DNA of 19,074 bases from a virus. Lineage: Duplodnaviria; Heunggongvirae; Uroviricota; Caudoviricetes. Location: IMG/VR virus record IMGVR_UViG_2563366969_000006. One strand, given 5' to 3'. Shown piece by piece: positions 1,484 to 19,074 of the stretch. Made by a program: the position numbers and the translations under genes. Numbering within the stretch: the first letter of the stretch is position 1; every line of letters begins with the position of its first letter. The notes under the pieces were generated by a model, which did not search any database, was not told the origin of the DNA, and worked only from the letters and a program-made list of their open reading frames with translations.

Positions 1484-1798
1484 TCACGATAGTTCCGTTT
1501 TGTTGAATTCAATTATATCAAGGTCAGAACTTTCGTAATCCTTACCGAATAAAGCAAAACATATCGCGTCAAGTTCTCTCTTATGTTTGGACGCCCGATC
1601 ATAATTACCACCCCAACAGCAAATGAATCCACCAAGTACTGCTGATTCAAAAAGTAATGATGCTGCATCAATATGTCTGAACCAGGAGTCTATAAGTAAA
1701 GCAGAGAGTGATATTAATGTTCCCCACCCGCCAATCCTTCTCCATTTCTCAGCTTCATATTTAAGAGAAGCAATATATTCAATTTTATCTCTCGTCAT
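1484..1798 (-). CDS. Small membrane protein (104 aa, two predicted transmembrane helices), last gene of the large operon; function unknown
   Basis: ORF with TGATG stop-start overlap to the upstream gene; two hydrophobic segments (IGGWGTLISLSALLIDSWF and ASLLFESAVLGGFICCWGG); lower GC than upstream genes. Confidence 0.6.
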   Translation of the reverse strand: MTRDKIEYIASLKYEAEKWRRIGGWGTLISLSALLIDSWFRHIDAASLLFESAVLGGFICCWGGNYDRASKHKRELDAICFALFGKDYESSDLDIIEFNKTELS

Positions 1799-4554: not shown

Positions 4555-6614
4555 TATGGGTTCCTCAAGAAGCACGCTGCTGCTACAGAATAAACCTTCG
4601 ATTCGTTCTGGACTGTCTTAATCTGTTCATCCAACTCAGCCAGGAGATCAGAAAGTTTTGTCGGGTTTCCGGTTTCCGGGTGAGCTATAGTCAGCTCAGG
4701 ATTGGCAACAGCCATGTCCCTGGCAGCCATAAGGTCATAGCTGTTGGATGAGAGAACCTGCCCTGTATCTGGATCAACGCTGATGTCCCCTCTGTGTTCA
4801 CCAGCCGATGAGAAAGCACTTTCAGCACGAGGGACAGGCGATTCACTAATTGGCTCTGATGATGTTTCGTATCTGACACCATTTTCTTCAAAAACCTTTT
4901 GTATTTCATGGTATTGCTCTTGGTAAGTATCAGATATATCTGATCGCAATGGACCATCAAGCCCTCGCGCCATCCCCCCAACATTTACAGGCTGACCATC
5001 ATTAAGTTGCCTGTATGCTTCATCCATGGCGTCAACATGGCTGTTGATGCTCTCATTGCTGGTATGAAGCACTGGTGACGATTCAATATCGTAATGAAGC
5101 CCCTCATTCAAAATGTGGGCTGCATCAATATCGCTTGGTTTTATTCTTTCCCTCGCCCGGATACCAAAAACTTTTTCTACTGCGGCTTCCAGTTTCATAT
5201 TGCGAAGACGCATACTTACGAGTAACCGTAACTGCTCAGGTGTAACGGTTCCAACCTGAATACCACTGTATCTGAATATATAGGCTTTAAAACCTGAAAT
5301 AATTTTTTCCCATGATGAAACGCTTGTCTTTAGAGATGGATTTACTGCATGTGCGGCAACTTCTTCAGCGTACAACCACTCAGGATATGTTTCAGGGTAC
5401 TCACCCCTTTTCTTATATTCATAATATTGTGACATCCCATATGCAAATTCAGGATAGTCAGAATGCTTGTTTGCAGATTTAAGTACAGCATTAGCTAGCT
5501 TTCTGGCCTTCCAGTCAGGGTAATGGCGCTGCTCAAGATGAAGCGCCTCGTGATGAAGGGTTTCTAACAGTTCTTCATGGTCTTTTAATCCATTAATATT
5601 TATTCTTATTATTGGTTCTTTTCCGGAAGCTACTGTCACATGACCTTTATTCAGAAGTATTTCTCCATCACTATTTTTTATTGCTGGTTCATTAATAAGT
5701 TCTATTACTCCTGAATCAGATAAATCACGAACCATTGACTCAATGTTACCATCAGGAGATTGCTGATAATGTTCACCAAAAGTTGATTTTATTTCTTCTG
5801 CAGAAATGTTCGACTCTGTACCATCATGGTTATTATGGGTAGTCAGGTGATGAACGCCACCAAAGACCCCGCCTAAAACGGCATCGACTAACATCGCCTG
5901 ACCGTCAAATACCCGGTACTGTTTTGCCATCTCCGTGTAGCCTTTTTCCTCCAGTGTTGCGCCTACTGAGTAACGGTTCAGTCCACCGAATCCGGTGTTG
6001 ATTGCCACACCTGAGGCAATGCGCGTTGCCAGTGTGGTGCCGACGGCAGCGGGTAAGGCCATACCCACAGCATTGAAAAGGCTCTGCTGCGTTGCCAGGT
6101 TACGCGCTGTAGCCTCGTCTACTCCCTTCCCTTTAAAATCCTGATAGGACTGCTCATACGTAGAACTGAAGGCTGTAGCAGCGCCGATGAGCGGACCACC
6201 AAACATAGTTGTTCCGATTGCAGGAACAAATTTACCAAGCTCATTTAATACCTCAGCCGCCATTCCCTGGCTGCCTGCATCAGGCTTCACATAGCTGCGG
6301 GCATCCTGTAACTGTTTTCCGATCGTGTCGTATGTATCATTCAGTGTTTTGTCAGCATCAGGGAACATCTCCCGAAAAATATTAACTGTCGGTGCCACGT
6401 CTGCGGTAAATGCCGGATCGCTAATCAGACGCTTGCTGAATCCGACGGCAGACTGCGCGAGACCGAGAGCCCCCTCCGCCACGCCGCTCAAAAGTGCAGT
6501 ACCTGAACCCTGGAAGGGAGTCGGATCGTAGTCTTCTGGCCTTGCTGGGTTGGCAACTGTTTTGTCGTCAATCCATGCCTGACCTTCTGGAGCCAAAGAA
6601 AAAACATCAGACAT
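4554..6614 (-). CDS. Large hypothetical protein (686 aa) with an HExxH (HEALH) zincin-like motif and Gly/Ala-rich hydrophobic region
   Basis: Long ORF; TAATG overlap with the upstream 843-aa gene; GAGGG ribosome-binding site; ETLHHEALHLEQRH encoded around 5534-5560; no P-loop. Confidence 0.75.
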   Translation of the reverse strand: MSDVFSLAPEGQAWIDDKTVANPARPEDYDPTPFQGSGTALLSGVAEGALGLAQSAVGFSKRLISDPAFTADVAPTVNIFREMFPDADKTLNDTYDTIGKQLQDARSYVKPDAGSQGMAAEVLNELGKFVPAIGTTMFGGPLIGAATAFSSTYEQSYQDFKGKGVDEATARNLATQQSLFNAVGMALPAAVGTTLATRIASGVAINTGFGGLNRYSVGATLEEKGYTEMAKQYRVFDGQAMLVDAVLGGVFGGVHHLTTHNNHDGTESNISAEEIKSTFGEHYQQSPDGNIESMVRDLSDSGVIELINEPAIKNSDGEILLNKGHVTVASGKEPIIRININGLKDHEELLETLHHEALHLEQRHYPDWKARKLANAVLKSANKHSDYPEFAYGMSQYYEYKKRGEYPETYPEWLYAEEVAAHAVNPSLKTSVSSWEKIISGFKAYIFRYSGIQVGTVTPEQLRLLVSMRLRNMKLEAAVEKVFGIRARERIKPSDIDAAHILNEGLHYDIESSPVLHTSNESINSHVDAMDEAYRQLNDGQPVNVGGMARGLDGPLRSDISDTYQEQYHEIQKVFEENGVRYETSSEPISESPVPRAESAFSSAGEHRGDISVDPDTGQVLSSNSYDLMAARDMAVANPELTIAHPETGNPTKLSDLLAELDEQIKTVQNESKVYSVAAACFLRNP

Positions 6615-9145
6615 TATTCAACCCTCACGACAATAGCTTTATTGGTTCTGGGATCTGTTGCCCAGCGTCCGCTACCATTTACAAGCCGATACCGGTTATT
6701 GCCGATATTAACTGGCGTGAAATTTGACACTGCATTTACGTTAAGTCCGGCATCTTTCAGTGCTTGTTTCGCAGATGTGGTATAGCGATCTTTGAAAGTA
6801 GATTTATCCATGCCAAAAGGCATTACAACGTCGCCGCCATTAAAACCATTGTATATACCGCCAGTAGCATACTTCACGGCATCAGCTACAATGTCTGTAT
6901 CAGGCATACTGGTTCTTACCGTAGAGGCATCACCAGATTGATAAGCTATTCCTGCGTAAGCGGCTTTGAAAAGGCTATAACTGATCTGGCGTAACTGCGG
7001 GTTACGGGCAAATGCATTACCTACCTGTTCGTCGAAAGCGTCTTTCATCTTATCTTCGCTCGGCAACTGTACCGGAGTTATGCCCGCATTCTTCATGGCC
7101 TTCGTCGGATTCAGTAGTTGGTCGCCGGAAAGAATAACCTTTGCAACGTCGTACTTGTTCATCGTCGGCTTATACCCGATGAACTGACTATATGGGATCG
7201 TCGGCCTGGTGTTGTCGTACTGGTTATCCGGCGTGCCCAGCAGCAGCGCAGAATAGGCTGTTGCCGCACTGTTCGGAGCAATTACAGATGCCACCTGCCG
7301 TATTGCTGGCGCAGGCAGCTTCTCCCCCATGCTCTGCAACAGTTTAATTGTCTGGTCAACGTTCTGAGTGCCGCGCACCTGCTGTGCCAGCGCAGCCGCC
7401 TCTTCACTGTTGAGGAGTGGGGCATTAATTCCCAACGCGCGTAAGCTTTCCTGCGACGAGAAACGGTTAGCCACCTCGGCAGTGATGTCGTCAGGGTTGT
7501 TGCTGGTGATCGGCTTATAGGCTCCGATTTCCACCGCTGCACTAAACGGATTATTCTGCCTCTGGGTTATTACCTTCGTGGCTGCCGCCGATACCCGGTC
7601 GAATAACTCCGCACGAGACGCATACCCCTCCCCTGTCTCACCAGTATCCGGGCGTAATTGCTCAACATATGCGGTAATGCTGCTTGTCGGCATGTTGCGG
7701 AAAGAGCCTATATACTGTCCGGCGATCTGCAAATTTCTGAACTCGGTATATCGCAGGTTTCCTTCTCTGACACCATAAGCAGCAATGAACTCACCCTCAC
7801 CAGGCGGGTTAGGAAATTCAACGCCACGCATATACGCAGCCGTTGCATCGCGAACCCGGCTTTCGAGCATCGTTCTATATTCAGCCTGCTGCTGTCTGGC
7901 TAATGCATCCGTCTGTCGCAACACGCTGGCCTGATCTGATTCACTTAAAGCATCGAACCAGGCTACACCGGTATAACGTTTATTTTTTGTCGGTAGCTGA
8001 GAAAGCCCCAGTGCGGCACTAACGCCAGCGGCCAATTGCTGATCACTGTACGGCTGACTGCCTTGCTCATGATGAATAATTGCTTTGCACAGAGATTTCA
8101 GTGTGTCAGGATTTGATGCGTCAAGCGGCTGGTCAGGAGTTACACCGAGCTGAGCACATACTGCCCGTATATAAGCATCAGTTTTATTATCATCACTGGC
8201 CGGTGCCCAGCGATTAATTATTTCGCTGATGGTGTCATAACCCTGACGCTGATACGACAGCAAATTGCGACCAAGCGCGCGAATACCGTGTTCAGGGGTT
8301 TCGAATTTGGCAAAGCGACCATCATCACCAGTCTGCCCAACCCACGGATTAGTTTTGCTGTATTCAAGATTGCCGGGGTTATTGTTGCGTATACCGCGGG
8401 TACGATCGGAAGAGCCACTATCTGCTACAGCACGGCGAGATCCAGCAGCAGTATCGCTTAACTCGCCATTTTGCTGTCTTACCTGAAGATAGTTTGCTCC
8501 AATAGCATTTTGAGCAGTTGCTTTTGCTGTTGCTTCTTTAAACTCGATTTTCTTGGCCTGGATTTGCTCGTCGCTCCAGCCATGCGCAATACCGTAATCC
8601 TCAATTTGCTGGAAAGTTTGCGTATTAGCCAATATGTATGCTGCGTTGTCGCCATATAATGCTGAGGCATTTTTACCATTATTCAGCAGTGTCGCCTGAA
8701 ACTGGCCTTCTTCGTAGGCATTTATTTGCCCTATCTCGTACCTCCCGGCCTGCGTAGCGAACTGAATACGCTGCTGCTGCGCCTGCTGCATGAAAGCATT
8801 ACGAGCCTGTTCATCCGGCAGCGACATAGCCAGTTGTTCGATCTGAGCATCAAACTGCTGTGTATACTCATGGCCTTTTCCAATAGCATTTTTCCCTTTC
8901 AGGTTAAGCAATCCTGTTTCAGGATTATTCAGCAGATCACTGCCTGTCTGACTGAGTTTAAGGGATGCCTCCTGAATCAAGGCAATATTGGCACGCTGTT
9001 TTGCCTGACCAAAAACATCAATTGCCTCTGCCCCTGCCCGAACAAAAGCATCACCAATACCTGGCTGAGAAAACGTCTGCAAGCCTGCTGACTGAACTCC
9101 ACGGCTCTCAACCTGACGTCCGGATACTGTTGGTACGACTGGCAT
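6614..9145 (-). CDS. Large hypothetical protein (843 aa), Gln/Ala-rich, with a conserved-looking block GIRNNNPGN...W.G...G.FA.F (possible peptidoglycan-hydrolase-like or virion-associated domain; unverified)
   Basis: Long ORF with a strong AGGAGG ribosome-binding site 6 nt upstream of the ATG; motif block encoded around 8155-8395; no P-loop. Confidence 0.75.
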   Translation of the reverse strand: MPVVPTVSGRQVESRGVQSAGLQTFSQPGIGDAFVRAGAEAIDVFGQAKQRANIALIQEASLKLSQTGSDLLNNPETGLLNLKGKNAIGKGHEYTQQFDAQIEQLAMSLPDEQARNAFMQQAQQQRIQFATQAGRYEIGQINAYEEGQFQATLLNNGKNASALYGDNAAYILANTQTFQQIEDYGIAHGWSDEQIQAKKIEFKEATAKATAQNAIGANYLQVRQQNGELSDTAAGSRRAVADSGSSDRTRGIRNNNPGNLEYSKTNPWVGQTGDDGRFAKFETPEHGIRALGRNLLSYQRQGYDTISEIINRWAPASDDNKTDAYIRAVCAQLGVTPDQPLDASNPDTLKSLCKAIIHHEQGSQPYSDQQLAAGVSAALGLSQLPTKNKRYTGVAWFDALSESDQASVLRQTDALARQQQAEYRTMLESRVRDATAAYMRGVEFPNPPGEGEFIAAYGVREGNLRYTEFRNLQIAGQYIGSFRNMPTSSITAYVEQLRPDTGETGEGYASRAELFDRVSAAATKVITQRQNNPFSAAVEIGAYKPITSNNPDDITAEVANRFSSQESLRALGINAPLLNSEEAAALAQQVRGTQNVDQTIKLLQSMGEKLPAPAIRQVASVIAPNSAATAYSALLLGTPDNQYDNTRPTIPYSQFIGYKPTMNKYDVAKVILSGDQLLNPTKAMKNAGITPVQLPSEDKMKDAFDEQVGNAFARNPQLRQISYSLFKAAYAGIAYQSGDASTVRTSMPDTDIVADAVKYATGGIYNGFNGGDVVMPFGMDKSTFKDRYTTSAKQALKDAGLNVNAVSNFTPVNIGNNRYRLVNGSGRWATDPRTNKAIVVRVE

Positions 9146-9241
9146 TAGTAACCTCCTATTTTGAATCGGGAGTCAGAATTCATAAAACCTGAGTTAGATA
9201 ACATTGGCGTCCCTCTGCTTTGATGCTGTACCAGCGATTCA

Positions 9242-9573: not shown

Positions 9574-9813
9574 CTGTGCTTACTTCTGGTAGTTACGCCA
9601 TACTGATTTCCCGATCCCATCTATCCCCATTTCTTTTTCAGTGCGTTTAAGCGACCGTTTCAGGTCTTCTAAATTATCCGGTTGCTTCGGTGGCCTCTGC
9701 GCCTTCCTGGAACATTCCAGTCGTCGCATTGATATGTAATACCGTTCCTTGTCAGTTCCCCAACTGCATTACTTCACCCCATCGCGCCGCCGCTCTTCGG
9801 TACAGGGTTTTAG

Positions 9814-10230
9814 TTAGCCTCCGACTCTTCCGTAGTGCTGTTCTGGTGGATTCACATAGCCCCTTTCTTGCAGGTATTCGCGAATATCAGACATCAGGAG
9901 ACGGTTAACCGTGCTCTTGTCTTTTCTCCGGTAAAGGCGTCTGGTGATCATGAAGTAGTTAGCAATGATCTCCGGTATATCCCTGACGCTGATACATGCT
10001 GTATGCTGGTCAATAGCTTCAATCATCTCTTCACGAGTTACAAAAGTCTGGCGTAAACGAGTGATCACACCATGTACATCTGAATGATCATTTATACGCT
10101 TATTTTGGCGCTTCGCGCTCTCGACTGTGACACTGACAACAATGTCAACTCTTTGTTTTTCCGCAATTTCATCCACAATGTGATCACCTGCACGGCGACC
10201 ATGTGCGTGATCATTTCTTACTATTTCCAT
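9814..10230 (-). CDS. Hypothetical protein (138 aa), His-rich N-terminus
   Basis: ORF with GGAGGAG ribosome-binding site; overlaps the 3' end of the ProQ/FinO gene by 20 nt; no family recognised. Confidence 0.5.
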
Positions 10231-11380: not shown

Positions 11381-13507
11381 TTAATCTTCTGCTTCAGGCT
11401 GGAACATCAGCACGTAAAAAATATGTTGCTTCCCGCCAATCCTGCCGAGCGCCTTTTTCTTGTAACGGCGGTCGCCTCCCGCTTCCAGCATTCCGGCTGC
11501 ACTCAACGCGCGGGCAAAGTGAGACGGATTAAATCCCTGTGCTATCTCACCCTCAAACACATGCGGGAACGTGTAAAAACGGAACTCGTCATCTTCGTTT
11601 CTGATACTCCCCTTTCTGTATCCGGCAAGGTCTTTAATCGGTAAATCACGCTCGTCGCTGTTTGGATAGGGAAGGTATCGACTGAACCCGAACGACGACA
11701 AAAACGCCTCAGCCTGTTCAACCATCTGTTTAAATTCCCTGTTGCCCGTGCCGAATTCCTTCACCCAGGCATTAAAGTTATGCTGAACTGCATCACGGCA
11801 CGCCTGAACATCCCAGCCTGTAACATGACCGGAAAGCACAAGCGCGGCCTCCAGTACGGCGAATCTTTCCCCCACACGGTGAACCTGCTCGCCGTAGCTC
11901 TCCGGTATCAGGTTGCGCCACCGCTCGCGACATGCCCTTACCGCGTCCTTTGCCTCCTGCTGGTGGCCTGCCAGCCATTTAACCCACTCACGACCTGCCG
12001 CCCCGTGATTTTCTGTCCAGGCATCTTTTAACGCGTCTGCGTGCGCCTTTCCGGTGCTGTATTCGTGAAACTGCGAGGCCTTTTCCATCGGTACGTTAAG
12101 CAGACGGACAAGCTGCCCCGCTTTAATTTTTATCCCTTCCGTTTTGAGGAATGTTTCAACGTCCATTTCTCCGGTGCTGATTGCCACCGTGCGCCAGTGT
12201 TTTATCTCCCTGTTGCCGCCGTCCTTCGCCCCCTGTAATTTCCCGGAACCGTTAAACAGCGTATAGGCTGACGTGGACACCTCCCGTGCGTTTCCGGCCT
12301 GGCCTATTTCATCCAGGGGTAACAGCCCGTCATTATGTGCTTCGGCCTCGTTGGCGATACCTAACGCCGTTCCGTACCAGGTCAGCCGTTGCGCGTCCGG
12401 CTCTCCCCATAAACTTGATGCAATGTTCTGTGTGGTGGTTTTACCTGCTGATGATTGCTCAAAAAGATGAACCCCGAAGCCGTCAGCACCCACCAGCCCG
12501 ATTAATGGTGCAGATAGCGATACCGCCACACCCAGCATCATGGACGGATTACCACCAGCCAGCCGTGCCACGGTATCGCGCCAGCCCTCCGCTGTTCCCG
12601 CCACGGAATAGCCATTAACAGCGGCAGTTTTTCCGGTAAACAGGATGGGTTTCTCTGATTCACCGATGATCGAACCATCCGGCATGATGTACGCACCAAA
12701 ATGCCACCCCGTTGTTGTGCTTAACTGCCATTCCTCATGGTTTCCGCTTAACTGCATCCAGTCAGCCAGGATAGCCCTGTATTTGCCGTTGGTCGTCACG
12801 TTAAGGCCGTGGTCTTTCAGCAACCGCCAGCCGTCACGGTCACCAATGCCTCCGCACGGGACCGCCATTGTAATGACCTCATGGTTTGCTGGTTTTTTCC
12901 AGCGCATCACGCGGTAATGCTCTTTGCCGATTGTTCCTGTTCCCAGTAGTTCAAGCGGAGAACATAACCACGTCTCAGGCCGGATAATTTCGCCTGACTG
13001 CTTGTCCACTTTGGGCGTTACCCAGAAAACACCATCGACGCGACTTTCAACACGAGGCTTTAATTCGTCATCATAATTTCCGGTGAAATTTGTCTTCGCC
13101 GGAAGGTTGATCACCAGACTGTTACCGCGTTCCGCATCATACTTCAGTCCAGCCATGCGCGGAGTCCAGTCCTCCGGCTGCTGATCAACAAAGCTGCGGT
13201 AGCAACGCGCCTCCTTCACACCCGCCACTGCAAGCAGTGTCGCTATCTGTGTAAGGTGCTGCTCTGATATTTCACCAGCACGATAAATGCGCACGTAATA
13301 GCGTCCTTTGTCGATGATTTGCGTGTCTGCCAGACTCGCCAGTTGTTCCGGTCCAAGAATAACTGGATGTGTATCATCTGCCGCAATATGCTTTCCGGCC
13401 CATTCGCTCCACTCTTTCGCATGTGCCCAGGCATCACTACCCGCAAAGATAATCACCTCCGTCATTTTGTCTTTCGGCTGGTGCTTTAAATTCGGTGCGC
13501 GTTTCAT
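11381..13507 (-). CDS. Replication protein, primase/helicase-like (708 aa; P4 alpha-like role, DUF927-type P-loop helicase domain)
   Basis: Walker A-like SSAGKTT and Walker B-like LLPLDE in the central region; ATGA start-stop overlap with the upstream gene; adjacent iterons. Confidence 0.65.
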   Translation of the reverse strand: MKRAPNLKHQPKDKMTEVIIFAGSDAWAHAKEWSEWAGKHIAADDTHPVILGPEQLASLADTQIIDKGRYYVRIYRAGEISEQHLTQIATLLAVAGVKEARCYRSFVDQQPEDWTPRMAGLKYDAERGNSLVINLPAKTNFTGNYDDELKPRVESRVDGVFWVTPKVDKQSGEIIRPETWLCSPLELLGTGTIGKEHYRVMRWKKPANHEVITMAVPCGGIGDRDGWRLLKDHGLNVTTNGKYRAILADWMQLSGNHEEWQLSTTTGWHFGAYIMPDGSIIGESEKPILFTGKTAAVNGYSVAGTAEGWRDTVARLAGGNPSMMLGVAVSLSAPLIGLVGADGFGVHLFEQSSAGKTTTQNIASSLWGEPDAQRLTWYGTALGIANEAEAHNDGLLPLDEIGQAGNAREVSTSAYTLFNGSGKLQGAKDGGNREIKHWRTVAISTGEMDVETFLKTEGIKIKAGQLVRLLNVPMEKASQFHEYSTGKAHADALKDAWTENHGAAGREWVKWLAGHQQEAKDAVRACRERWRNLIPESYGEQVHRVGERFAVLEAALVLSGHVTGWDVQACRDAVQHNFNAWVKEFGTGNREFKQMVEQAEAFLSSFGFSRYLPYPNSDERDLPIKDLAGYRKGSIRNEDDEFRFYTFPHVFEGEIAQGFNPSHFARALSAAGMLEAGGDRRYKKKALGRIGGKQHIFYVLMFQPEAED

Positions 13508-13806
13508 TTCTTGCCCCTGAATGCGTTAATCATGTTCTTTATTACCTGAATATTTGCCCGTGCTTTCTCTTTACTGGTGGGCTTACTGCGTGGTGCTGCA
13601 CATACCAGTGAAAAATCACGCCGGAACTGATGAACGGGCATCACACAGTCATAGTCGTACCCTGCGCGGCGGTATGTAATGTGCCGTTCATACACGGAAT
13701 TAATAACCACGCTGTCGCCATATTTATCCCGGAAAATATCCCCGATCCTGATTTTCGGATGAGTCTGTCCGCTGGCATTTAAGCCAGTAAATTTAATCTT
13801 CTTCAT
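13504..13806 (-). CDS. Hypothetical protein (100 aa) directly upstream of, and coupled to, the replication gene
   Basis: ORF with ATGA overlap to the primase start; occupies the position held by epsilon/orf151 in the P4 operon (position analogy only). Confidence 0.5.
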   Translation of the reverse strand: MKKIKFTGLNASGQTHPKIRIGDIFRDKYGDSVVINSVYERHITYRRAGYDYDCVMPVHQFRRDFSLVCAAPRSKPTSKEKARANIQVIKNMINAFRGKK

Positions 13807-13808
13807 GT

Positions 13809-14066
13809 TTATTTCCCGGTGTGAGGTTCTTCTTTATATTTATGGGCTAACAAATCTGGTAATTGCCTGTATTTATCCTCGGCAATATATTCAGAATAAT
13901 CGACAGCACTGTTCAGTATATCTAACGCCGTTTCATGCTCCAGATTCGAAACTATAAGGAACGTTGCTACTTTTAGCATATTCGCGATATGCAAAAGAGC
14001 ATCAATTTCATTTTTTGGCGCTTCACTGAATTTTTGCTCCAGAAGAATAAATCGTTCATCACGCAT
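13809..14066 (-). CDS. Hypothetical protein (85 aa)
   Basis: ORF with AGGGGGAA ribosome-binding site; start overlaps the stop of the upstream 67-aa gene by 8 nt. Confidence 0.5.
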   Translation of the reverse strand: MRDERFILLEQKFSEAPKNEIDALLHIANMLKVATFLIVSNLEHETALDILNSAVDYSEYIAEDKYRQLPDLLAHKYKEEPHTGK

Positions 14067-14262
14067 AGTATTCCCCCTGACGGATGCGAGCAGTAAATAC
14101 CATCACGCAGCCAGCCGGGGATTGCTGACGGGCTTTCTGTTCGCTGGTGGCCTCGATGTGGATTACGCGCGGTTGTGCCGTGCTCAGGGCGATAAAACGC
14201 CAGATGTATTTATTCAGGTTGTGCGAGTCCCGCCCTTGCGGGTGTGTGGTATGATTTAACAT
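14059..14262 (-). CDS. Hypothetical protein (67 aa), first gene of the replication operon
   Basis: Internal ATG at 14260-14262 preceded by GAGGT; this is the C-terminal part of an implausible 386-aa ORF in the track. Confidence 0.45.
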   Translation of the reverse strand: MLNHTTHPQGRDSHNLNKYIWRFIALSTAQPRVIHIEATSEQKARQQSPAGCVMVFTARIRQGEYYA

Positions 14263-14343
14263 AGCTACCTCGATACGCTTTCTATCGTTGGTGGTTAGAC
14301 GCCCTGCATGTGTTGCGAGCACTGCGGGGCGTTGCTCTTTCAG

Positions 14344-14425
14344 GTGTATTTCACCTTTGCTTTTTAATTTACTCACTGGTGAAATACACTTCAAGCCTTT
14401 TTTTATCATTTTTTTTGCGTATACT
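14344..14425. promoter_or_regulatory. Divergent promoter/operator region: perfect 12-bp inverted repeat GTGTATTTCACC (14344-14355) / GGTGAAATACAC (14378-14389); candidate minus-strand promoter (-35 TTGAAG, -10 TAAATT) and plus-strand -10 TATACT (14420-14425)
   Basis: Inverted repeat seen directly; promoter hexamers are by-eye matches to consensus. Confidence 0.5.
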
Positions 14426-14455
14426 GACATACACCAATTTTTAGGAGATCCAGAA

Positions 14456-14635
14456 ATGGCAACTGGTGCAAAGAACGCAAAATCACAAATGACAACTGTC
14501 AGAATCCCACATGAAGTAATGGATGATATTGAGCAACTTAAAGAACCTGGCGAAAGTACCGCTGGTTTTTTAGTTACTGCCGCAAAAGGCGAGATCAAAC
14601 GCCGCCAGCGTCGCAAGGCCAAAGAGCAGGAGTAA
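14456..14635 (+). CDS. Small putative DNA-binding regulator (59 aa), possibly ribbon-helix-helix-like
   Basis: ATG at 14456 with AGGAGA ribosome-binding site 8 nt upstream; N-terminal TTVRIPHEVMDDIEQL resembles a beta-strand-helix RHH start; only plus-strand gene block in the island. Confidence 0.5.
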   Translation: MATGAKNAKSQMTTVRIPHEVMDDIEQLKEPGESTAGFLVTAAKGEIKRRQRRKAKEQE

Positions 14636-14692
14636 CCATCACCAGCGCCGTGGTGCGGTGAACTGTGGCGCACAGGGTTACAGGTATCTACG

Positions 14693-14890
14693 ATGACTGA
14701 CAAATCATTAAAGAAATTATCCTCATCCAGGAAAAAACAACGCAAAAATGCGGTAAGCGAACAAGAACAGGAAAGATTTGCGCCATGTGCGTTTGTCCTT
14801 GAGAAGTTCTTAAAAGAGTACAGGCGCACAAAAATGGAATCGCATACCTGGAAAACATCGCAGTATGGCGATGCTAAAGAGCAGGAATAG
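14693..14890 (+). CDS. Small basic hypothetical protein (65 aa)
   Basis: ORF downstream of the 59-aa gene, weak ribosome-binding site; shares a duplicated 3' end (AKEQE-stop) with it; followed by a terminator. Confidence 0.35.
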   Translation: MTDKSLKKLSSSRKKQRKNAVSEQEQERFAPCAFVLEKFLKEYRRTKMESHTWKTSQYGDAKEQE

Positions 14891-14980
14891 CCCACCAGCA
14901 AGCCAGCACACTGATCACATTGCCCACCAGCCGCAAATCTGGCATTGTTGGCGATGCGTTTGATTTCCTTTGTTCCCACT

Positions 14981-15008
14981 GGCGACCTATCCCGGTCGCC
15001 TTTGTTTT
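14981..15008 (+). terminator. Rho-independent terminator for the plus-strand small-gene unit
   Basis: Stem GGCGACC / GGTCGCC with 6-nt loop followed by TTTGTTTT; convergent with the Bro-N gene. Confidence 0.65.
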
Positions 15009-15058
15009 GCCTGTTATCCAGCAACGGGGCGCTTTTTCTTTCTGTAACGTTCGGATCG

Positions 15059-15616
15059 TTACACATTGCTTTCACCCTCCAGAAAATCAGGCTGATATTT
15101 ACGCCATAGCGCCCGCTCTTCTCGTTCCAGTGCATCTTTTGCCTCTTTGCATTGCTGTAACCTGTAACCGCGTTTGCTGGCTTCCTGTTGATATGCAGCC
15201 TGACGTTTACTGAAATCATTCAGCATGGCAAACGGAACACCATAACCCCCCGTTTTGCGGATTGAAGGAATCACCTCGCGGAATACCCAGTTACTGAAAC
15301 GGTGCGCAAATGTGCCTGGTGTGGAAGCTTTACGGCTGCGGACGATCAGTTTGTAGAAACCTGATTCAGAGACAACATTCCAGCTTCTGGCACCACCACG
15401 CTTACCGGAATGCCCCTCGGTTAAAGCTAGGGTCATTACCTCGTCGTTATCCAGAACTGAAACAGCATCAGTAACATTGCTGATTTCCTGCGCAGCACAC
15501 ACATCAGCGCCAACAAACCACGGCTCGCCGTTGATACTCACTATGCGCACCTGAATGTCATCGAATTTAATGACAGAGATTTCAGTGCGCCCGGCATAAA
15601 AGACAGGTTTACGCAT
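15059..15616 (-). CDS. Bro-N domain protein (185 aa), putative antirepressor
   Basis: N-terminal region (F.D..VRIVSINGEPWFVGADVCAA ... SGFYKLIVRSRKASTPGTFAHRFSNWVFREVIPSIRKTGGY) matches the Bro-N pattern from memory; GGAGGT ribosome-binding site; start overlaps the stop of the upstream gene. Confidence 0.7.
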   Translation of the reverse strand: MRKPVFYAGRTEISVIKFDDIQVRIVSINGEPWFVGADVCAAQEISNVTDAVSVLDNDEVMTLALTEGHSGKRGGARSWNVVSESGFYKLIVRSRKASTPGTFAHRFSNWVFREVIPSIRKTGGYGVPFAMLNDFSKRQAAYQQEASKRGYRLQQCKEAKDALEREERALWRKYQPDFLEGESNV

Positions 15617-16433
15617 GGCTGCTCACCTCCATGCGGCGGGCTAACCAGCGTTGCGAAAGGCGAATTAATTCAGCTTTCCGCTGGTGGTAGTCCAGGCCTA
15701 ACTCAATCAGCGTGATATTGCTCTGCTCAAGGTAAGAAAGGTGCTCAAGCTGCAACACGCTCATGTGGTCGCGTGGTTCACCTGTGATGCCGTTCGCCTG
15801 CGCCCACTGTTTTGCAGTCATGCCACCCAGCACGATACGCGCCAGCATATTAGCTTCCGTAGTGTAGTGGTGCTGGAGCGTGTTTTTACCCAGTTCAGCC
15901 CGGTACGCCTCCAGCGCGGCACACATTGGCTTAAAGTAGCTGGCTACGGTGATACGGGCTTTCAGTTCCCGGCGTAACGCTGCGGAACGTACAGGCGCTA
16001 CCTTGTGTAGCTCCTCCTCGCATTTGATGAAGTACTGACGAACGGCGCGGCCCTGTTCGGTGCGTTCGATCATTGCCAGTTCTTTCGCCATTCCGACACT
16101 TAACAGATAGTCTTTACCGGGTCTGCCAGAGTGCTTAATCTTGCTGTAAGCCTCGCCATTCGGGCTTTTCCCCAAATTTGGGGAAATTGTTTTATGGACT
16201 GAGTAATCGTACCCAATGGTGAAGTCATATTCAGAGATACGATCAGTGATCCATGTAGAGAAGTCTTTTCCCACGCCCAACGCTTTGTGTAACGCTTTTG
16301 CGCTAACAACAGCGGCTTCACGCCCGCCAATAACGCCGGAAATAACCGGGATAATTTCGCCGAAATTTTGCAGATTCTGGTTTTCAGGCCGAACAAAGCC
16401 CTGCCCCTGTACGGGCGTTTTTCGCAGTTTCAT
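15609..16433 (-). CDS. AntA/AntB-like antirepressor family protein (274 aa)
   Basis: N-terminal segment (AVVSAKALHKALGVGKDFSTWITDRISEYDF) resembles the AntA domain; GGAG ribosome-binding site 5 nt upstream of the ATG. Confidence 0.55.
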   Translation of the reverse strand: MKLRKTPVQGQGFVRPENQNLQNFGEIIPVISGVIGGREAAVVSAKALHKALGVGKDFSTWITDRISEYDFTIGYDYSVHKTISPNLGKSPNGEAYSKIKHSGRPGKDYLLSVGMAKELAMIERTEQGRAVRQYFIKCEEELHKVAPVRSAALRRELKARITVASYFKPMCAALEAYRAELGKNTLQHHYTTEANMLARIVLGGMTAKQWAQANGITGEPRDHMSVLQLEHLSYLEQSNITLIELGLDYHQRKAELIRLSQRWLARRMEVSSHA

Positions 16434-16508
16434 AAAAACTCCGCTATCGAATTAAGTTACTTTTTATTTGCTAGTGGATAGCTTGGGCAATAACCCGTAG
16501 CTATTTAA

Positions 16509-16706
16509 TCAGGCAGCCGTTCCGCGTGATTCGGCAATACGCTGATTGATCCATTCGTCAATTTCACTTTCAACGAAAGCAATCGCTCGCGAGCCAATTT
16601 TAACTGATGCAGGAAATTTACCTTGCCCCATAAGGCGATAAATCCATGCCTTGCTATATCCAGTTCTACGCTGAACTTCTGTTAAACGAATAAGCGTATT
16701 TGACAT
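16509..16706 (-). CDS. alpA: AlpA-family transcriptional regulator / excisionase-like protein (65 aa)
   Basis: Size, position next to a P4-type integrase, and pattern (LTEVQRRTGYSKAWIYRLMGQGKFP...ESEIDEWINQR) characteristic of AlpA. Confidence 0.8.
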   Translation of the reverse strand: MSNTLIRLTEVQRRTGYSKAWIYRLMGQGKFPASVKIGSRAIAFVESEIDEWINQRIAESRGTAA

Positions 16707-16775
16707 CTATTTACCTCATAACGTCTACTCAATTTGACGAGGTAATCATGGCACAGAAATAACGAATATTTTCAT

Positions 16776-16918
16776 ACCCTCAGGCCTAATGGTTACCGGA
16801 AGGAAATTAACCCTAAGGGTGATGGTAATCGGGAGGAAATCTACCCTAAGGGTGATGGTAAAATTGACGGGGAAGATAAAAAAATACCCTCAGGGTAACA
16901 GTAAATCACCCTCAGGGT
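16776..16918. promoter_or_regulatory. Array of four palindromic operator-like sites ACCCT-N-AGGGT (16810-16820, 16843-16853, 16886-16896, 16908-16918) plus a partial site at 16776-16784, in the alpA upstream region
   Basis: Seen directly; sites 1-2 share the longer unit ACCCTAAGGGTGATGGTAA; located in the 227-bp intergenic region 5' of alpA. Confidence 0.55.
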
Positions 16919-16933
16919 ATGCGGTATGGTGCG

Positions 16934-17737
16934 TTAATCCGGCTTTGCGTTCTTTTGGCTGTTGTCTCGGTTAATAGGGCAGGCAGTCCTCTCTATGAGC
17001 GTTGCAAGAGCATTACTTGCCCCCCACTGCTTAAGCTCCCTGGTTATCGCTTCTTGATTTCCCCTGGTGGCAAAATCATTTTCTGGATCGTAATTGGCCC
17101 ACTCTCTGTTTCTAATCTCAATAGCCTTAGCTAATGGGTCTTTATCCCAGTATTTATATAAGTGTATCGGGCGCTCTTGCTCTAACTGCTCTATCCTTGC
17201 CCTTAACTCTGCGTTTTCTCTTTCCAGCATTGCGATTTGGGATAATAAATCATCCTCTGTACGCAACTCTTTCTTTTCAATATCGCGTCCTTGTACCTCG
17301 TCATTTTCAGAAGAGTTAGCGCCTTCCAGCTTCGTTAACGCGTCAAGGACATCGGGAAAAATTGCGAAAATTTCACCCCTTATAAATCCAATGTTCTCAA
17401 ATTCGGGATCTTCCCAATAACCGGACACCAGAAAACCATTTTCATCCCTCTCACCAGGTAAACAACCATGTTTCCGAACCGCATCCAGATTTCTATAAAG
17501 AACATCATAATCAAATTCATCCCGATACGGGTTACAAAAAGATTCCAACAGCTTAAATTCATTTACTGTGTACAGGCGGATATGTTCTCCGCTTATTCTC
17601 CTGAGTATCCAAGTTATGAGATCTGAAACATCATAATCATCACCAGCGACCTTAAGCACGACCTCAAGAAATTCACGTAAAGAAATAAAATCTTTTTTGT
17701 ATTCGTTTAATTCGGCATGAATATCAATCATACGCAC
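16934..17737 (-). CDS. Hypothetical acidic protein (267 aa) with predicted coiled-coil, between integrase and alpA
   Basis: ORF with GAGGTG ribosome-binding site; the segment LLSQIAMLERENAELRARIEQLEQER looks like a coiled coil; no enzymatic motif recognised. Confidence 0.6.
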   Translation of the reverse strand: MRMIDIHAELNEYKKDFISLREFLEVVLKVAGDDYDVSDLITWILRRISGEHIRLYTVNEFKLLESFCNPYRDEFDYDVLYRNLDAVRKHGCLPGERDENGFLVSGYWEDPEFENIGFIRGEIFAIFPDVLDALTKLEGANSSENDEVQGRDIEKKELRTEDDLLSQIAMLERENAELRARIEQLEQERPIHLYKYWDKDPLAKAIEIRNREWANYDPENDFATRGNQEAITRELKQWGASNALATLIERTACPINRDNSQKNAKPD

Positions 17738-17859
17738 ACCTCAGCGTCCTCTACTGTAGTGGCTGTGCCAGCCCGTCGAGGTATACGGTTTTTCGGGAGC
17801 GACCCTAGACACAGCTTTTTCTTTCGTCGCTCAAAGTCTACTACTGTATACTCAACCAG

Positions 17860-19074
17860 TCATCCACATTTTCCGAACTTGCCATGCACCACGTTGCCGC
17901 CCTGTTCCAGTGAGTCCATATAGTCGGCGTACCACTGGAGCATCTCGCGCCGCCCGTCCAGATATTGCGCATGATTGTACGTGCCACGAATTGAGTTCTT
18001 ATCAACGTGTGCAAGCTGCGTTTCTATCCACGCGGTGTTATAGCCCTGCTCATGTAAAATCGTGCTCATCGTGTGCCGGAACCCATGACCAGTAACGCGC
18101 CCAGAATAGCCAATACGACGAATAAGCACGTTCATCGCCATTTCACTCATCGGCTTACTGTGCTGGATTCGACCAGGGAAAATAAACTGATACTGCCCCG
18201 TCATGTGTTTTAACTGTTCCAGAATAGCGATCGCCTGTTCTGAAAGCGGCACACAATGAGGACGGCGCATCTTCATTCGTTCTTTAGGCACTTCCCACAA
18301 ACGATTATCAAAATCGATCTCCTGCCATTCTGCCTGTCGTAATTCCCCTGGCCGGAGCCCTGTCAGAATCAATAATCGCATACCCAGCTTGACGATCTGG
18401 CTTCCGGTGTACGTATTAAGAACGCGGAAAAATTCCGGCAGTTCGTCGGCCTTCAAATAGGCATAATGCTCTTTTTTGTGTGGAGCAAATGCGCTTGCCA
18501 GATCTGGTGCGGGGTTATATTCAGCGCGTCCGGTGATGATTGCGTACCGGAACACCTCGCCGCATCGCTGGCGAACCTTACGCAATTTTTCGGTCGCCCC
18601 ACGGTCATTAAGACGGGAGAGAACCGCAAGCAACTCCATTGGCTTAATTTCTGCGATCGGCCTGCCGCCAATGTACGGAAAAACGTCTTTTTCAAACGTC
18701 TCGATCATTTCCTCGGCGTATGACGATGACCACCTGTCGATCCTCTTTTCATACCATTCGCGAGCGATACCCTCAAAAGTATTGCCAAATTTGCTCGCCT
18801 GTTCTCGCTTTTGAGCTTTTCTGGCCTCACTTGGATTTATACCACCAGCAAGAAGCCTTTTAGCCTCATCCCTTGCCGCTCTGGCATCAGACAGAGACAC
18901 ATCAGGGTACACGCCCAACGACAACATTTTGGGCTTTCCTGCAAATCTGTAACGTAGTCGCCACCCTTTCGAGCCGTTCGGCTCAATGAGTAACGAAAGC
19001 CCGTTACCGTCATTGAGTGTATAAGCCTTTTCTTTCGGCTTCGCGCGCCTGATAGCAAGGTCTGAAAGCAGCAT
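17860..19074 (-). CDS. int: Tyrosine recombinase, P4-family integrase (404 aa)
   Basis: N-terminus LSDLAIRRAKPKEKAYTLNDGNGLSLLIEPNGSKGWRLRY and C-terminal catalytic region HGFRHTMST...LAHVDKNSIRGTYNHAQYL follow the P4/CP4-57 IntA pattern; start codon coincides with the window end. Confidence 0.9.
   Translation of the reverse strand: MLLSDLAIRRAKPKEKAYTLNDGNGLSLLIEPNGSKGWRLRYRFAGKPKMLSLGVYPDVSLSDARAARDEAKRLLAGGINPSEARKAQKREQASKFGNTFEGIAREWYEKRIDRWSSSYAEEMIETFEKDVFPYIGGRPIAEIKPMELLAVLSRLNDRGATEKLRKVRQRCGEVFRYAIITGRAEYNPAPDLASAFAPHKKEHYAYLKADELPEFFRVLNTYTGSQIVKLGMRLLILTGLRPGELRQAEWQEIDFDNRLWEVPKERMKMRRPHCVPLSEQAIAILEQLKHMTGQYQFIFPGRIQHSKPMSEMAMNVLIRRIGYSGRVTGHGFRHTMSTILHEQGYNTAWIETQLAHVDKNSIRGTYNHAQYLDGRREMLQWYADYMDSLEQGGNVVHGKFGKCG

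Follow-up and report, generated by a model that had tools for sequence, protein, structure and literature searches.

What do two adjacent genes with antirepressor-family domains do in a phage satellite? The question is raised by a viral DNA stretch of 19,074 nucleotides (hereafter the window; IMG/VR record IMGVR_UViG_2563366969_000006), in which a preliminary description, based on the letters of the sequence and its open reading frames, had noticed an AntA-like and a Bro-N protein encoded back to back at positions 15059-16433 and had proposed that they form a module by which the satellite derepresses or senses its helper, and from which the type of the helper repressor could be predicted.

The satellite setting assumed in that proposal is borne out by the architecture of the window, which holds an att-bounded island of ∼19.1 kb at a tRNA-Gly gene, delimited by a 19-bp direct repeat, one copy of which lies at positions 120-138 and the other at the tRNA-Gly 3′ end. 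The island encodes, in this order, an integrase (int, 17860-19074), alpA, the AntA-family gene, the Bro-N gene, an icd-like gene and a DUF927 primase (11381-13507), followed by a captured block of late virion genes of the phage epsilon15 type. With att repeats, int, alpA and a primase, and with homologues of epsilon15 gp15-gp17 as its only virion genes, it is of the PICI type (phage-inducible chromosomal island), and the Bro-network genes lying between int/alpA and the primase constitute a Bro zone as previously defined (PMC10111431). Three large downstream genes were also considered as defence cargo, but they have no PADLOC or Pfam matches and are the very homologues of epsilon15 gp15-gp17; this captured block indicates that the helper is probably epsilon15-like, and it predicts the helper type far more directly than the AntA and Bro-N genes do.

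The transcription unit appears to be headed by alpA (16509-16706, minus strand), which encodes a protein of 65 aa that matches Pfam Phage_AlpA at an E-value of 2.4e-19 and is followed, after a 75-nt gap, by the AntA-family ORF; no minus-strand terminator-like site was found by a terminator scan from alpA to the Bro-N stop codon. Work on the island EcCICFT073 has shown that helper phages induce alpA and that its product activates both the alpA promoter and the ORF lying downstream (PMC6092414). Because they lie downstream of such a helper-induced gene, the AntA and Bro-N genes of our island would be outputs of a sensing process rather than the sensor. No DNA target was identified for either protein: a palindrome array (ACCCTNAGGGT) located 5′ of alpA was considered as their operator and rejected, as among the loci compared it tracks mostly another gene, hyp267, in islands that have Bro-N without AntA, and is absent from two loci (L003 and L009) despite a similar alpA.

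The domain assignments of the preliminary description are confirmed by Pfam matches far beyond chance. The AntA-family ORF (15609-16433, minus strand; RefSeq WP_001580984.1), the first gene after alpA, encodes 274 aa, residues 43-125 of which (16059-16307) match the AntA family (PF08346) over profile positions 1-68 of 68, with an E-value of 7.6e-21 and a score of 74.9 bits against a gathering threshold of 27, and form a predicted DNA-binding head that is 44-46% identical to the N-terminal part of the “Ant” proteins of Stx phages. The Bro-N ORF (15059-15616, minus strand; RefSeq WP_001580982.1; phrog_2593, 9.5e-53) encodes 185 aa and matches the Bro-N family (PF02498) over residues 22-117 (15266-15553) with an E-value of 6.4e-16 and 59.2 bits, above the curated cutoff of 25.6, in line with the winged-helix, APSES/Dachshund-like DNA-binding fold predicted for this region. 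The remainder of the Bro-N protein (residues 118-185, 15062-15265) is a conserved tail, delimited from the family alignment and predicted to be helical at residues 129-148 and 153-174, which has no Pfam match even when the C-terminal part is searched at E ≤ 10; across the family alignment, 53 columns are invariant. The fold matches are of modest significance.

The AntA protein is a composite. Its full-length homologues are conserved in Enterobacterales, at 266-282 aa, and the sole one found in a phage is that of the Edwardsiella phage EPP-1, where all neighbouring genes are hypothetical. Behind the AntA head lies an all-helical C-terminal domain (residues 126-274, 15612-16058) for which there is no Pfam model and which AlphaFold predicts with a pLDDT of 70-90; the predicted N-terminal half of the protein was discarded as unusable (pLDDT < 50, residues 1-146). 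With a mean pairwise identity of 79%, this C-domain is less variable than the head, in which the family varies most (62%, dropping to 50% at residues 60-116). It recurs in 298 clusters at 50% identity, and among 98 representatives it is preceded by Phage_pRha (39), AntA (29), KilA-N (21) or Bro-N (2) heads. Such a combination of one conserved C-domain with four alternative and more variable heads supports the reading of the protein as a modular regulator. Exchange also affects the very N-terminus: the leader at residues 1-25 (16359-16433), which begins with MKLRKTPVQGQGFVRPEN, heads Rha-type genes in L002 and L009 and an AntA-type gene in L003, a variant of it (GQGFxHPEN) is found on Bro-N genes that stand first in the Bro zone, and AntA and Bro-N genes also have another leader type in common (MKxEKSRxxSEAAPQP), so that the leader appears to be a module tied to position and common to whichever Bro-zone gene follows alpA.

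Neither of the two proteins resembles a proven antirepressor. The preliminary description had suggested a search for KilA-C, and no such domain was detected over the whole length of either protein at E ≤ 0.1, nor in the C-terminal parts at E ≤ 10; nor was KilA-C/ANT (PF03374) found among the 98 relatives of the C-domain, or a Pfam match to P22_AR_N or P22_AR_C in either protein or among these relatives. Sequence searches of solved chains with both proteins gave nothing at E ≤ 1 save chance matches to apolipoproteins, profile searches of solved structures returned only spurious polyubiquitin matches and a weak match to DdrC, the latter to the AntA-protein C-domain, and Pfam showed neither protein to carry a nuclease, toxin or NTPase domain. 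For neither full-length protein is there a homologue of tested function, and DNA binding is a prediction. Identical copies of the island in RefSeq already have both genes annotated with the AntA and Bro-N domain names, and the PHROGs families of both ORFs are annotated as “anti-repressor”; for these genes, the term is a family label and not a demonstrated activity.

The overlap of the two genes is equally real. On the minus strand, the AntA stop codon (TAA, 15609-15611) and the Bro-N start codon (ATG, 15614-15616) share the 8-nt sequence ATGCGTAA, 6 nt upstream of whose ATG lies the Shine-Dalgarno sequence GGAGGTGA, the whole junction spanning 15609-15630. Overlaps of this kind are common at operon junctions in general, and here the arrangement is not particular to the pair: the same 8-nt overlap recurs between Bro-N and the long ORF that follows it (15059-15080, with a GGAGGG Shine-Dalgarno sequence and the overlap ATGTGTAA) and between icd and the next gene, with Shine-Dalgarno-plus-ATGnnTAA junctions running from Bro-N through the long frame and icd toward the primase. 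In L003, an identical MCN... start stands directly after the AntA stop codon.

The long frame itself (14059-15066, minus strand) comprises 335 codons and ends as an Icd-like protein of 67 aa (14059-14262). It is antisense to the plus-strand genes YlcI and hyp65, has no stop in 265 codons where the other two frames have 16 and 14, and stays open in none of 20,000 shuffles; in 8 of 17 loci, the open frame reaches back as far as the stop codon of the Bro zone. Two readings of the long frame were rejected, that it encodes a conserved protein, because no excess at codon position 3 is seen outside the Icd part, and that it is a homologue of P4 Eta, because the two show no similarity. Just 5′ of the icd-like ATG, RNAalifold predicts from an alignment of the 17 loci a conserved RNA of two hairpins (14268-14332, minus strand), the second of which (14268-14291) pairs with the GG of the icd Shine-Dalgarno sequence; 96.8% of its cells are paired, against 88.7% in shuffles, and 6 of its 15 pairs show compensatory changes, a number reached by none of 500 shuffles. 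It belongs to no Rfam family at threshold, and the immunity RNA C4/isrK was not found by Rfam in 13500-17900 (E ≤ 5) or 14150-14450 (E ≤ 10). The Bro-zone position, the lack of terminator-like sites in the scan from alpA to Bro-N, the uniform junctions, the open frame and the RNA at the icd Shine-Dalgarno sequence support the reading favoured below, with an operon whose genes we infer to be co-transcribed with alpA and translationally coupled.

Within such operons, the contents of the Bro zone vary. Since AntA-family genes also occur alone, and Bro-N is usually the sole gene after alpA, the tandem of AntA and Bro-N is one of several cassette combinations and not a fixed unit; AntA-family genes are moreover found in islands whose accessory zones differ widely, including one that carries GapS1 and a minimal island, and cassettes of the zone are exchanged, lost and reordered among islands. 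The Bro-N allele of our island does accompany the epsilon15 block, with 36 E. coli genomes carrying both (the block being present in 37 and the allele in 43), and this association is real but does not constitute independent evidence, as L002, the one other island with allele and block that was examined, is almost the same over the entire segment running from Bro-N to the primase and differs only in the integration module.

How, then, might the pair act? That one or both proteins bind and inactivate the repressor of a helper prophage, thereby inducing it, is possible, and it is what the family names and the PHROGs annotations imply. A repressor of the epsilon15-like helper type is annotated as similar to SPC32H Rep, induction of phages of the epsilon15 type proceeds via an antirepressor and not through cleavage of the repressor (PMC7380047), and a protein-binding function is conceivable for the conserved C-domain. 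We nevertheless regard this activity as unlikely. The KilA-C/ANT and P22_AR domains are absent, the searches of solved structures, among which the SPC32H Rep-Ant entries should be present, gave no match, and neither protein has a homologue in epsilon15; besides, the genes lie behind a helper-induced alpA, so that a resident island would make their products after the helper has become active, AntA-family genes recur in islands with unrelated accessory zones, as in the GapS1 and minimal islands, and the pair is only one cassette combination among several. The idea of a derepression or sensing module that reveals the repressor type is left unsupported, and no feature of the sequence shows either protein to inactivate a helper repressor. 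P4 offers a precedent for helper derepression by a satellite, as it encodes an antirepressor of its helper P2, the Epsilon protein, that acts on the P2 C repressor. A specific version of the idea, in which the AntA-protein C-domain, Bro-N or both represent a new structural class of antirepressor directed against a non-cleavable, SPC32H-type repressor, with expression gated by a translation-dependent checkpoint formed by the open frame and the icd RNA, strikes us as improbable; if true, an arriving satellite could induce its own epsilon15-like helper, as P4 does with P2 through Epsilon.

An effect on phage reproduction is conceivable in the opposite direction too, with the proteins blocking the helper or other phages, for instance through DNA binding or growth arrest, to the benefit of the satellite or the host. 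Among the defence-candidate families of PADLOC, PDC-S22 is matched by the C-domain of the AntA protein (E 1.7e-10), a related island carries the defence gene GapS1, Gram-negative PICIs interfere strongly with their helpers via genes not yet identified (PMC6092414), and over-expressed Bro-N/KilA-C proteins can inhibit growth, as in the case of phi11 Gp07 (PMC5944126). PDC families, however, are candidates chosen by neighbourhood, and since satellites often carry defence cargo the match may reflect location only; the Bro-N protein has no PADLOC match, and neither protein carries a nuclease, toxin or NTPase domain, so that we give interference or defence only a slim chance. The chief role of the ORFs could also lie in cis, in carrying ribosomes from alpA to icd and the primase, stopping premature termination and opening the icd Shine-Dalgarno sequence, much like eta in P4 or icd in P1, with the cassettes being interchangeable. 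The uniform junctions, a frame kept open over 265 codons without amino-acid constraint, the covarying pairing with the icd Shine-Dalgarno sequence and the free exchange, loss and reordering of cassettes are all in keeping with this, and in P4, eta has been described as translationally coupled to the alpA homologue, its translation preventing termination (PMC10111431). Yet in both proteins the amino-acid sequence is strongly conserved from one genus to another, the Bro-N family having 53 invariant columns and the C-domain a mean identity of 79%, which indicates that the products themselves are under selection; as there is also neither similarity to P4 Eta nor a C4/isrK RNA, a role chiefly in cis seems a poor prospect.

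The reading we favour, and to which we give about even chances, is that the pair represents DNA-binding regulators of a PICI-type Bro zone, expressed from an alpA-driven operon and binding helper DNA, satellite DNA or both. By analogy with EcCICFT073, the helper phage, probably epsilon15-like, would turn on alpA, and AlpA would drive its own operon; ribosomes would then move from the AntA ORF to Bro-N, the long frame, icd and the primase, across junctions that are observed and a coupling that is deduced from them, and the two proteins would bind specific sites on helper and/or satellite DNA and reprogram transcription, with the swapping of heads between islands altering their target specificity.

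Should this ordinary reading be right, the locus is a further case of the Bro zones known from enterobacterial satellites, and the main use of the AntA/Bro-N pair is one of caution, “antirepressor” on such genes being the label of a domain and not of a function. More is to be gained from the surrounding region than from the two genes. Through captured internal-virion genes, it ties a PICI-type island to a podovirus helper of the epsilon15-like kind, and the overlapping junctions, enforced open frame and icd-associated RNA of its alpA-to-primase operon resemble translation-dependent control of the P4/P1 style; these features would make it a concrete system for studying both the gating of replication in Gram-negative satellites and the function of Bro-network proteins.

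Among known systems, individual likenesses are found in several phages. The head of the AntA protein is 44-45% identical to the N-terminal part of Ant from Stx and other lambdoid phages; in Phi24B Ant, the likeness to P22 Ant resides in the C-terminal domain and not in the N-terminal part (PMC3064807), and it is this P22-like domain that is absent here, with no P22_AR_C or ANT match. [quoted passage not shown] The head of AntB shows 49.6% identity to the Bro-N ORF over residues 13-126 of the latter, and the C-terminal halves differ; AntB is encoded in the icd-containing immA operon (antA-icd-antB), where its gene shares 4 nt with the small gene before it (PMC4488713), and the N15 “AntA” is a small protein outside the Pfam AntA family. 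The Bro-N gene follows icd in N15 and precedes it in our island, an ant/icd order opposite to that of both P1 and N15, the link from Bro-N to the Icd-like ORF through the open frame and overlapping junctions being a putative coupling read from the sequence. The left operon of P4 (vis-eta/kil/CI RNA-epsilon-alpha) shares with ours an alpA-like gene followed by one or more translationally coupled Bro-network ORFs, a long frame with a kil- or icd-like end, a structured RNA and then a primase (PMC10111431), but our long frame has no similarity to any P4 protein, and neither a C4/isrK match nor an epsilon homologue was identified. [quoted passage not shown] A further correspondence is with the Gram-negative PICIs, which are organised into Integration, Bro, Replication and Late zones (PMC10111431). 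Here the Bro zone departs from the described ones in pairing an AntA head and its unnamed C-domain with a subsequent Bro-N, in being accompanied by a late block from an epsilon15-like podovirus and in having no C4/isrK RNA detected by Rfam; it agrees with them in its position between int plus alpA and the primase, in its AntA and Bro-N families, in the swapping of domains and cassettes and in a late zone with captured helper genes, and the AntA/Bro-N pair is an unremarkable instance of the variable Bro zone known from enterobacterial phage satellites.

Two minus-strand ORFs lie exactly where the preliminary description had placed them (15059-16433), AntA upstream and Bro-N downstream, and the proposed overlap of stop and start codons is borne out, the AntA TAA and the Bro-N ATG overlapping as ATGCGTAA, with a GGAGGTGA Shine-Dalgarno sequence 6 nt upstream of the ATG. 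The upstream ORF (15609-16433, minus strand, 274 aa) matches Pfam AntA over residues 43-125 (E 7.6e-21, 74.9 bits, cutoff 27) and the downstream one (15059-15616, minus strand, 185 aa) matches Pfam Bro-N over residues 22-117 (E 6.4e-16, 59.2 bits, cutoff 25.6); both fall in PHROGs families labelled 'anti-repressor', and their RefSeq annotation already carries the AntA and Bro-N domain names. Of the domains initially proposed for searching, KilA-C did not materialise: neither it nor ANT gave a Pfam match at E≤0.1 with the whole proteins or at E≤10 with their C-terminal parts alone. The pair belongs to Pfam AntA and Bro-N and to the Bro zone of an island with the sequence-level characters of a PICI, a type of phage satellite, and falls outside the KilA-C/ANT antirepressors, P22-type Ant and the operons under C4/CI-type RNA control. 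The pair adds a new and so far uncharacterised member to a known gene class, in a zone already described in print.

The satellite setting assumed earlier holds: the element is an att-bounded island with PICI zone layout. The window matches part of the Escherichia coli AH19D088 chromosome at 100% identity, and a 19-bp direct repeat (TTGGAGCGGGCGAAGGGAA), present at 120-138 and at the 3' end of a tRNA-Gly just outside the window, bounds an element of about 19.1 kb. Read along the minus strand, int is followed by an int-alpA RNA (17748-17815, minus strand; Rfam RF02996, 46.9 bits), a 267-aa coiled-coil ORF, alpA, and the AntA and Bro-N ORFs; after these come two small plus-strand genes (a YlcI/YnfO family member and its paralogue) and then, again in minus-strand order, an Icd-like ORF, a small ORF, DUF4222, a DUF927 primase, SSB and ProQ/FinO. 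Next come a PerC-family regulator gene (9580-9805, frameshifted according to RefSeq) and, after it, three large minus-strand genes (6614-9145, 4554-6614 and 1798-4575), all hypothetical in RefSeq. The published plan of Gram-negative PICIs has four zones, Integration, Bro, Replication and Late, with late genes captured from the helper in the fourth (PMC10111431); the island matches this plan, and the pair is its 'Bro zone' (PMC10111431). BRO, AntA/AntB and Rha genes, together with Icd and YlcI/YnfO, are routine PICI content in a survey of Enterobacter satellites (PMC13612085).

The products of the three large genes share 79%, 89/74% and 89% amino-acid identity with gp15, gp16 and gp17 of Salmonella phage epsilon15, which are internal-virion or core proteins, and window 1796-9146 is collinear with epsilon15 12140-19331 at 75-79% nucleotide identity. 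As this three-gene block lies inside an att-bounded island, we interpret it as a captured block of helper late genes; its homology points to a putative epsilon15-like (Uetakevirus) helper, and it predicts the helper type better than the AntA/Bro-N pair, to which prediction of the helper repressor type had been ascribed. Roughly 370 additional E. coli genomes hold partial matches to the block, and in many of those listed the match adjoins a gene whose annotation is T7 gp14-family virion core protein. A role of the three genes as defence cargo was rejected, given the absence of any PADLOC or Pfam match and their epsilon15 homology.

The two regulators do not travel as a fixed unit. Among 5,426 complete E. 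coli genomes, 809 carry an AntA-family gene (at least 80% nucleotide identity) and only 21 the whole pair; the Bro-N allele is found in 43 E. coli genomes. Related islands fetched for comparison show AntA alone (L003), Rha followed by AntA and Bro-N (L002), AntA followed by DUF4222 and Ash (L004), or Rha with the same C-terminal domain followed by Bro-N (L009). Across species, in 55 loci with this Bro-N family (one per species), Bro-N mostly stands alone after alpA; integrase and/or alpA lie upstream on the same strand in nearly all, and a downstream primase was detected in about a third. The order AntA then Bro-N recurs in Pantoea, Chania and Lonsdalea, and the reverse in Xenorhabdus and Vibrio. 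Islands whose accessory zones are unrelated also harbour the AntA family, namely a minimal island and another that carries a GapS1 defence gene. The pair is thus best seen as one recurrent combination of interchangeable cassettes; the AntA gene, in particular, has no fixed association with the epsilon15-type block. The block (37 genomes) and the Bro-N allele (43 genomes) coincide in 36 E. coli genomes, but this is not independent evidence: L002 is the one further island of this kind that was examined in detail, and it is near-identical from Bro-N through to the primase, differing in the integration module alone.

The AntA protein family is conserved at full length (266-282 aa) in E. coli, Salmonella, Citrobacter, Klebsiella and Dickeya, with a mean pairwise identity of 79% in the C-terminal half versus 62% in the AntA head; over residues 60-116 identity drops to 50%, with three variants. 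Its closest full-length phage relative, at 56.6% identity, is encoded by Edwardsiella phage EPP-1 and annotated as hypothetical. The C-terminal domain (residues 126-274; window 15612-16058) is without a Pfam model, and an exhaustive search recovered it in 298 clusters at 50% identity. In 98 full-length representatives the preceding domain was Phage_pRha (39), AntA (29), KilA-N (21) or Bro-N (2), which, judged by domain composition, is textbook domain swapping of the Bro network. In an AlphaFold model, used for this domain only, it is all-helical (pLDDT 70-90; head <50); the top PDB match of the model, the DNA-binding protein DdrC (Foldseek E 3e-4, low TM), recurs faintly in a profile-to-PDB search (E 0.33), and we treat this predicted likeness as a lead only. 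Within the C-terminal domain, residues 179-262 hit PDC-S22, one of PADLOC's 'phage defence candidate' families (E 1.7e-10), whose inclusion there may stem from the defence cargo that satellites carry. At the other end of the protein (window 16359-16433), a comparison of the window with L002, L003, L009, L011 and L014-L065 revealed a leader that spans the first ∼18-25 codons of the gene placed next after alpA in the Bro zone, whatever its type. It comes in two types, MKxxKxxxxGQGFxHPEN and MKxEKSRxxSEAAPQP, each common to AntA-, Rha- and Bro-N-headed genes, and is missing from second-position Bro-N genes; by these alignments it is tied to position.

Bro-N and KilA-N families have DNA-binding folds, and the structure model of the Bro-N protein (mean pLDDT 73) predicts such a fold, as family knowledge would lead one to expect; its 65-residue tail is helical, conserved and without a domain name. 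Relatives of both proteins in sequenced phages are all below 60% identical. [quoted passage not shown] Downstream of ProQ, a hypothetical 138-aa protein (9814-10230, minus strand) matches the N-terminal part of phrog_63, 'anti-repressor Ant' (profile positions 11-81 of 431, E 2e-26), and the AntA ORF matches the same profile at positions 108-236; from these matches the protein appears to be a third Bro-network-like piece of the island. In three contigs from public assemblies, a 308-aa protein (P0130) joins the ∼165 N-terminal residues of an AntA-family protein (leader, head and first part of the C-terminal domain) to Bro-N from residue ∼40, the two parts meeting at a CAALE microhomology that they share; it could have arisen by natural recombination between the two neighbouring genes or be an assembly artefact.

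The overlap between the two genes follows a design that recurs along the operon: a G-rich Shine-Dalgarno sequence, a 6-9-nt spacer and an ATG overlapping the upstream stop as ATGnnTAA or ATGnnTGA. This design joins AntA to Bro-N, Bro-N to a long open frame (ATGTGTAA at 15059-15066) and icd to the next ORF; DUF4222 and primase overlap by 4 nt, and in L003, which lacks Bro-N, the AntA stop directly overlaps the same MCN... start. Because the chain of junctions is operon-wide, the AntA/Bro-N overlap is best explained as one link carrying ribosomes from the alpA end to icd and primase. The long frame (14059-15066, minus strand), which ends as the annotated Icd-like protein of 67 aa, has no stop in 265 codons, compared with 16 and 14 stops in the remaining two minus frames, and stays open in 0 of 20,000 shuffles. 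Of 17 loci whose Icd part is recognisable, 8 keep the frame open as far back as the stop of the preceding Bro-zone gene. The two plus-strand genes lie antisense to this frame, and no excess of substitutions at codon position 3 was found outside the Icd part and the stretches antisense to those genes. By these measures the frame seems to be kept open without conservation of its product, which suggests that the passage of translation through it matters rather than what it encodes.

Immediately upstream of the icd ATG (14262) lies a two-hairpin RNA (∼14268-14332, minus strand), conserved in 17 loci from many genera. Its alignment has 96.8% of cells paired against 88.7% in shuffles, and compensatory changes in 6 of 15 pairs, as many being seen in none of 500 shuffles; slid-partner controls reached at most 45% pairing. 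The outer pairs of the second hairpin take in the GG of the icd Shine-Dalgarno sequence. No Rfam family reaches threshold here, the best being R1162 antisense RNA (18.3 bits, E 0.66). Two GCUGGUGGGC boxes on the same transcript (14887-14899 and 14919-14931) are, by eye, partly complementary to its ACCACCAAC linker.

Other features flank the operon. Upstream of alpA (16775-16925), about five ACCCT(G/T)AGGGT palindromes, including a 33-nt tandem repeat, form a candidate operator array of the alpA promoter. The array occurs in four other fetched loci, three (L018, L036, L056) with the 267-aa gene between int and alpA and one (L029) without a detectable homologue; as it mostly tracks this gene and occurs in islands lacking AntA, we rejected it as an AntA/Bro-N target. 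The two small plus-strand genes (14456-14635 and 14693-14890) converge on Bro-N and are followed by a terminator-like hairpin (14981-15000, plus strand). One, of the YlcI/YnfO family, is ribbon-helix-helix-like by eye, the other a 65-aa paralogue with shared end repeats, and a 17-nt inverted repeat (14339-14355/14378-14394) occupies the divergent interval that separates them from icd; the two genes could constitute a repression module of the satellite itself.

In EcCICFT073, alpA is turned on by helper phages. AlpA activates the alpA promoter along with the ORF downstream, and over-expressed AlpA by itself is enough for excision and replication (PMC6092414). If the present island behaves likewise, the AntA and Bro-N cistrons would be expressed as outputs of helper sensing, so that the sensing role originally proposed for the pair itself probably does not apply. 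We lean, at roughly even odds, towards a reading in which both proteins would be made early after helper activation and act as sequence-specific DNA-binding regulators on helper and/or satellite promoters, with swapped heads retargeting them.

True antirepression, in which the pair would act against the helper repressor, is not far-fetched, since the repressor of epsilon15 carries an SPC32H-Rep-like annotation and phages of this kind undergo induction by way of antirepressors (PMC7380047); we nevertheless consider it unlikely, as no domain, sequence or distribution pointer to it was found. Slightly less probable again is a part in interference or defence, to which the PDC-S22 match of the C-terminal domain is the only pointer. 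Least probable is that the pair serves mainly in cis as a translated spacer, against which the strong amino-acid conservation of both proteins speaks. The greater interest lies in the neighbouring operon architecture and the helper assignment rather than in the pair itself. In P4, eta is coupled to an alpA homologue, and its translation prevents termination (PMC10111431). The predicted operon-wide coupling and the open frame described here resemble this arrangement, in a region with no sequence similarity to P4 that we could find. The operon also resembles the c4-icd-ant logic of P1.
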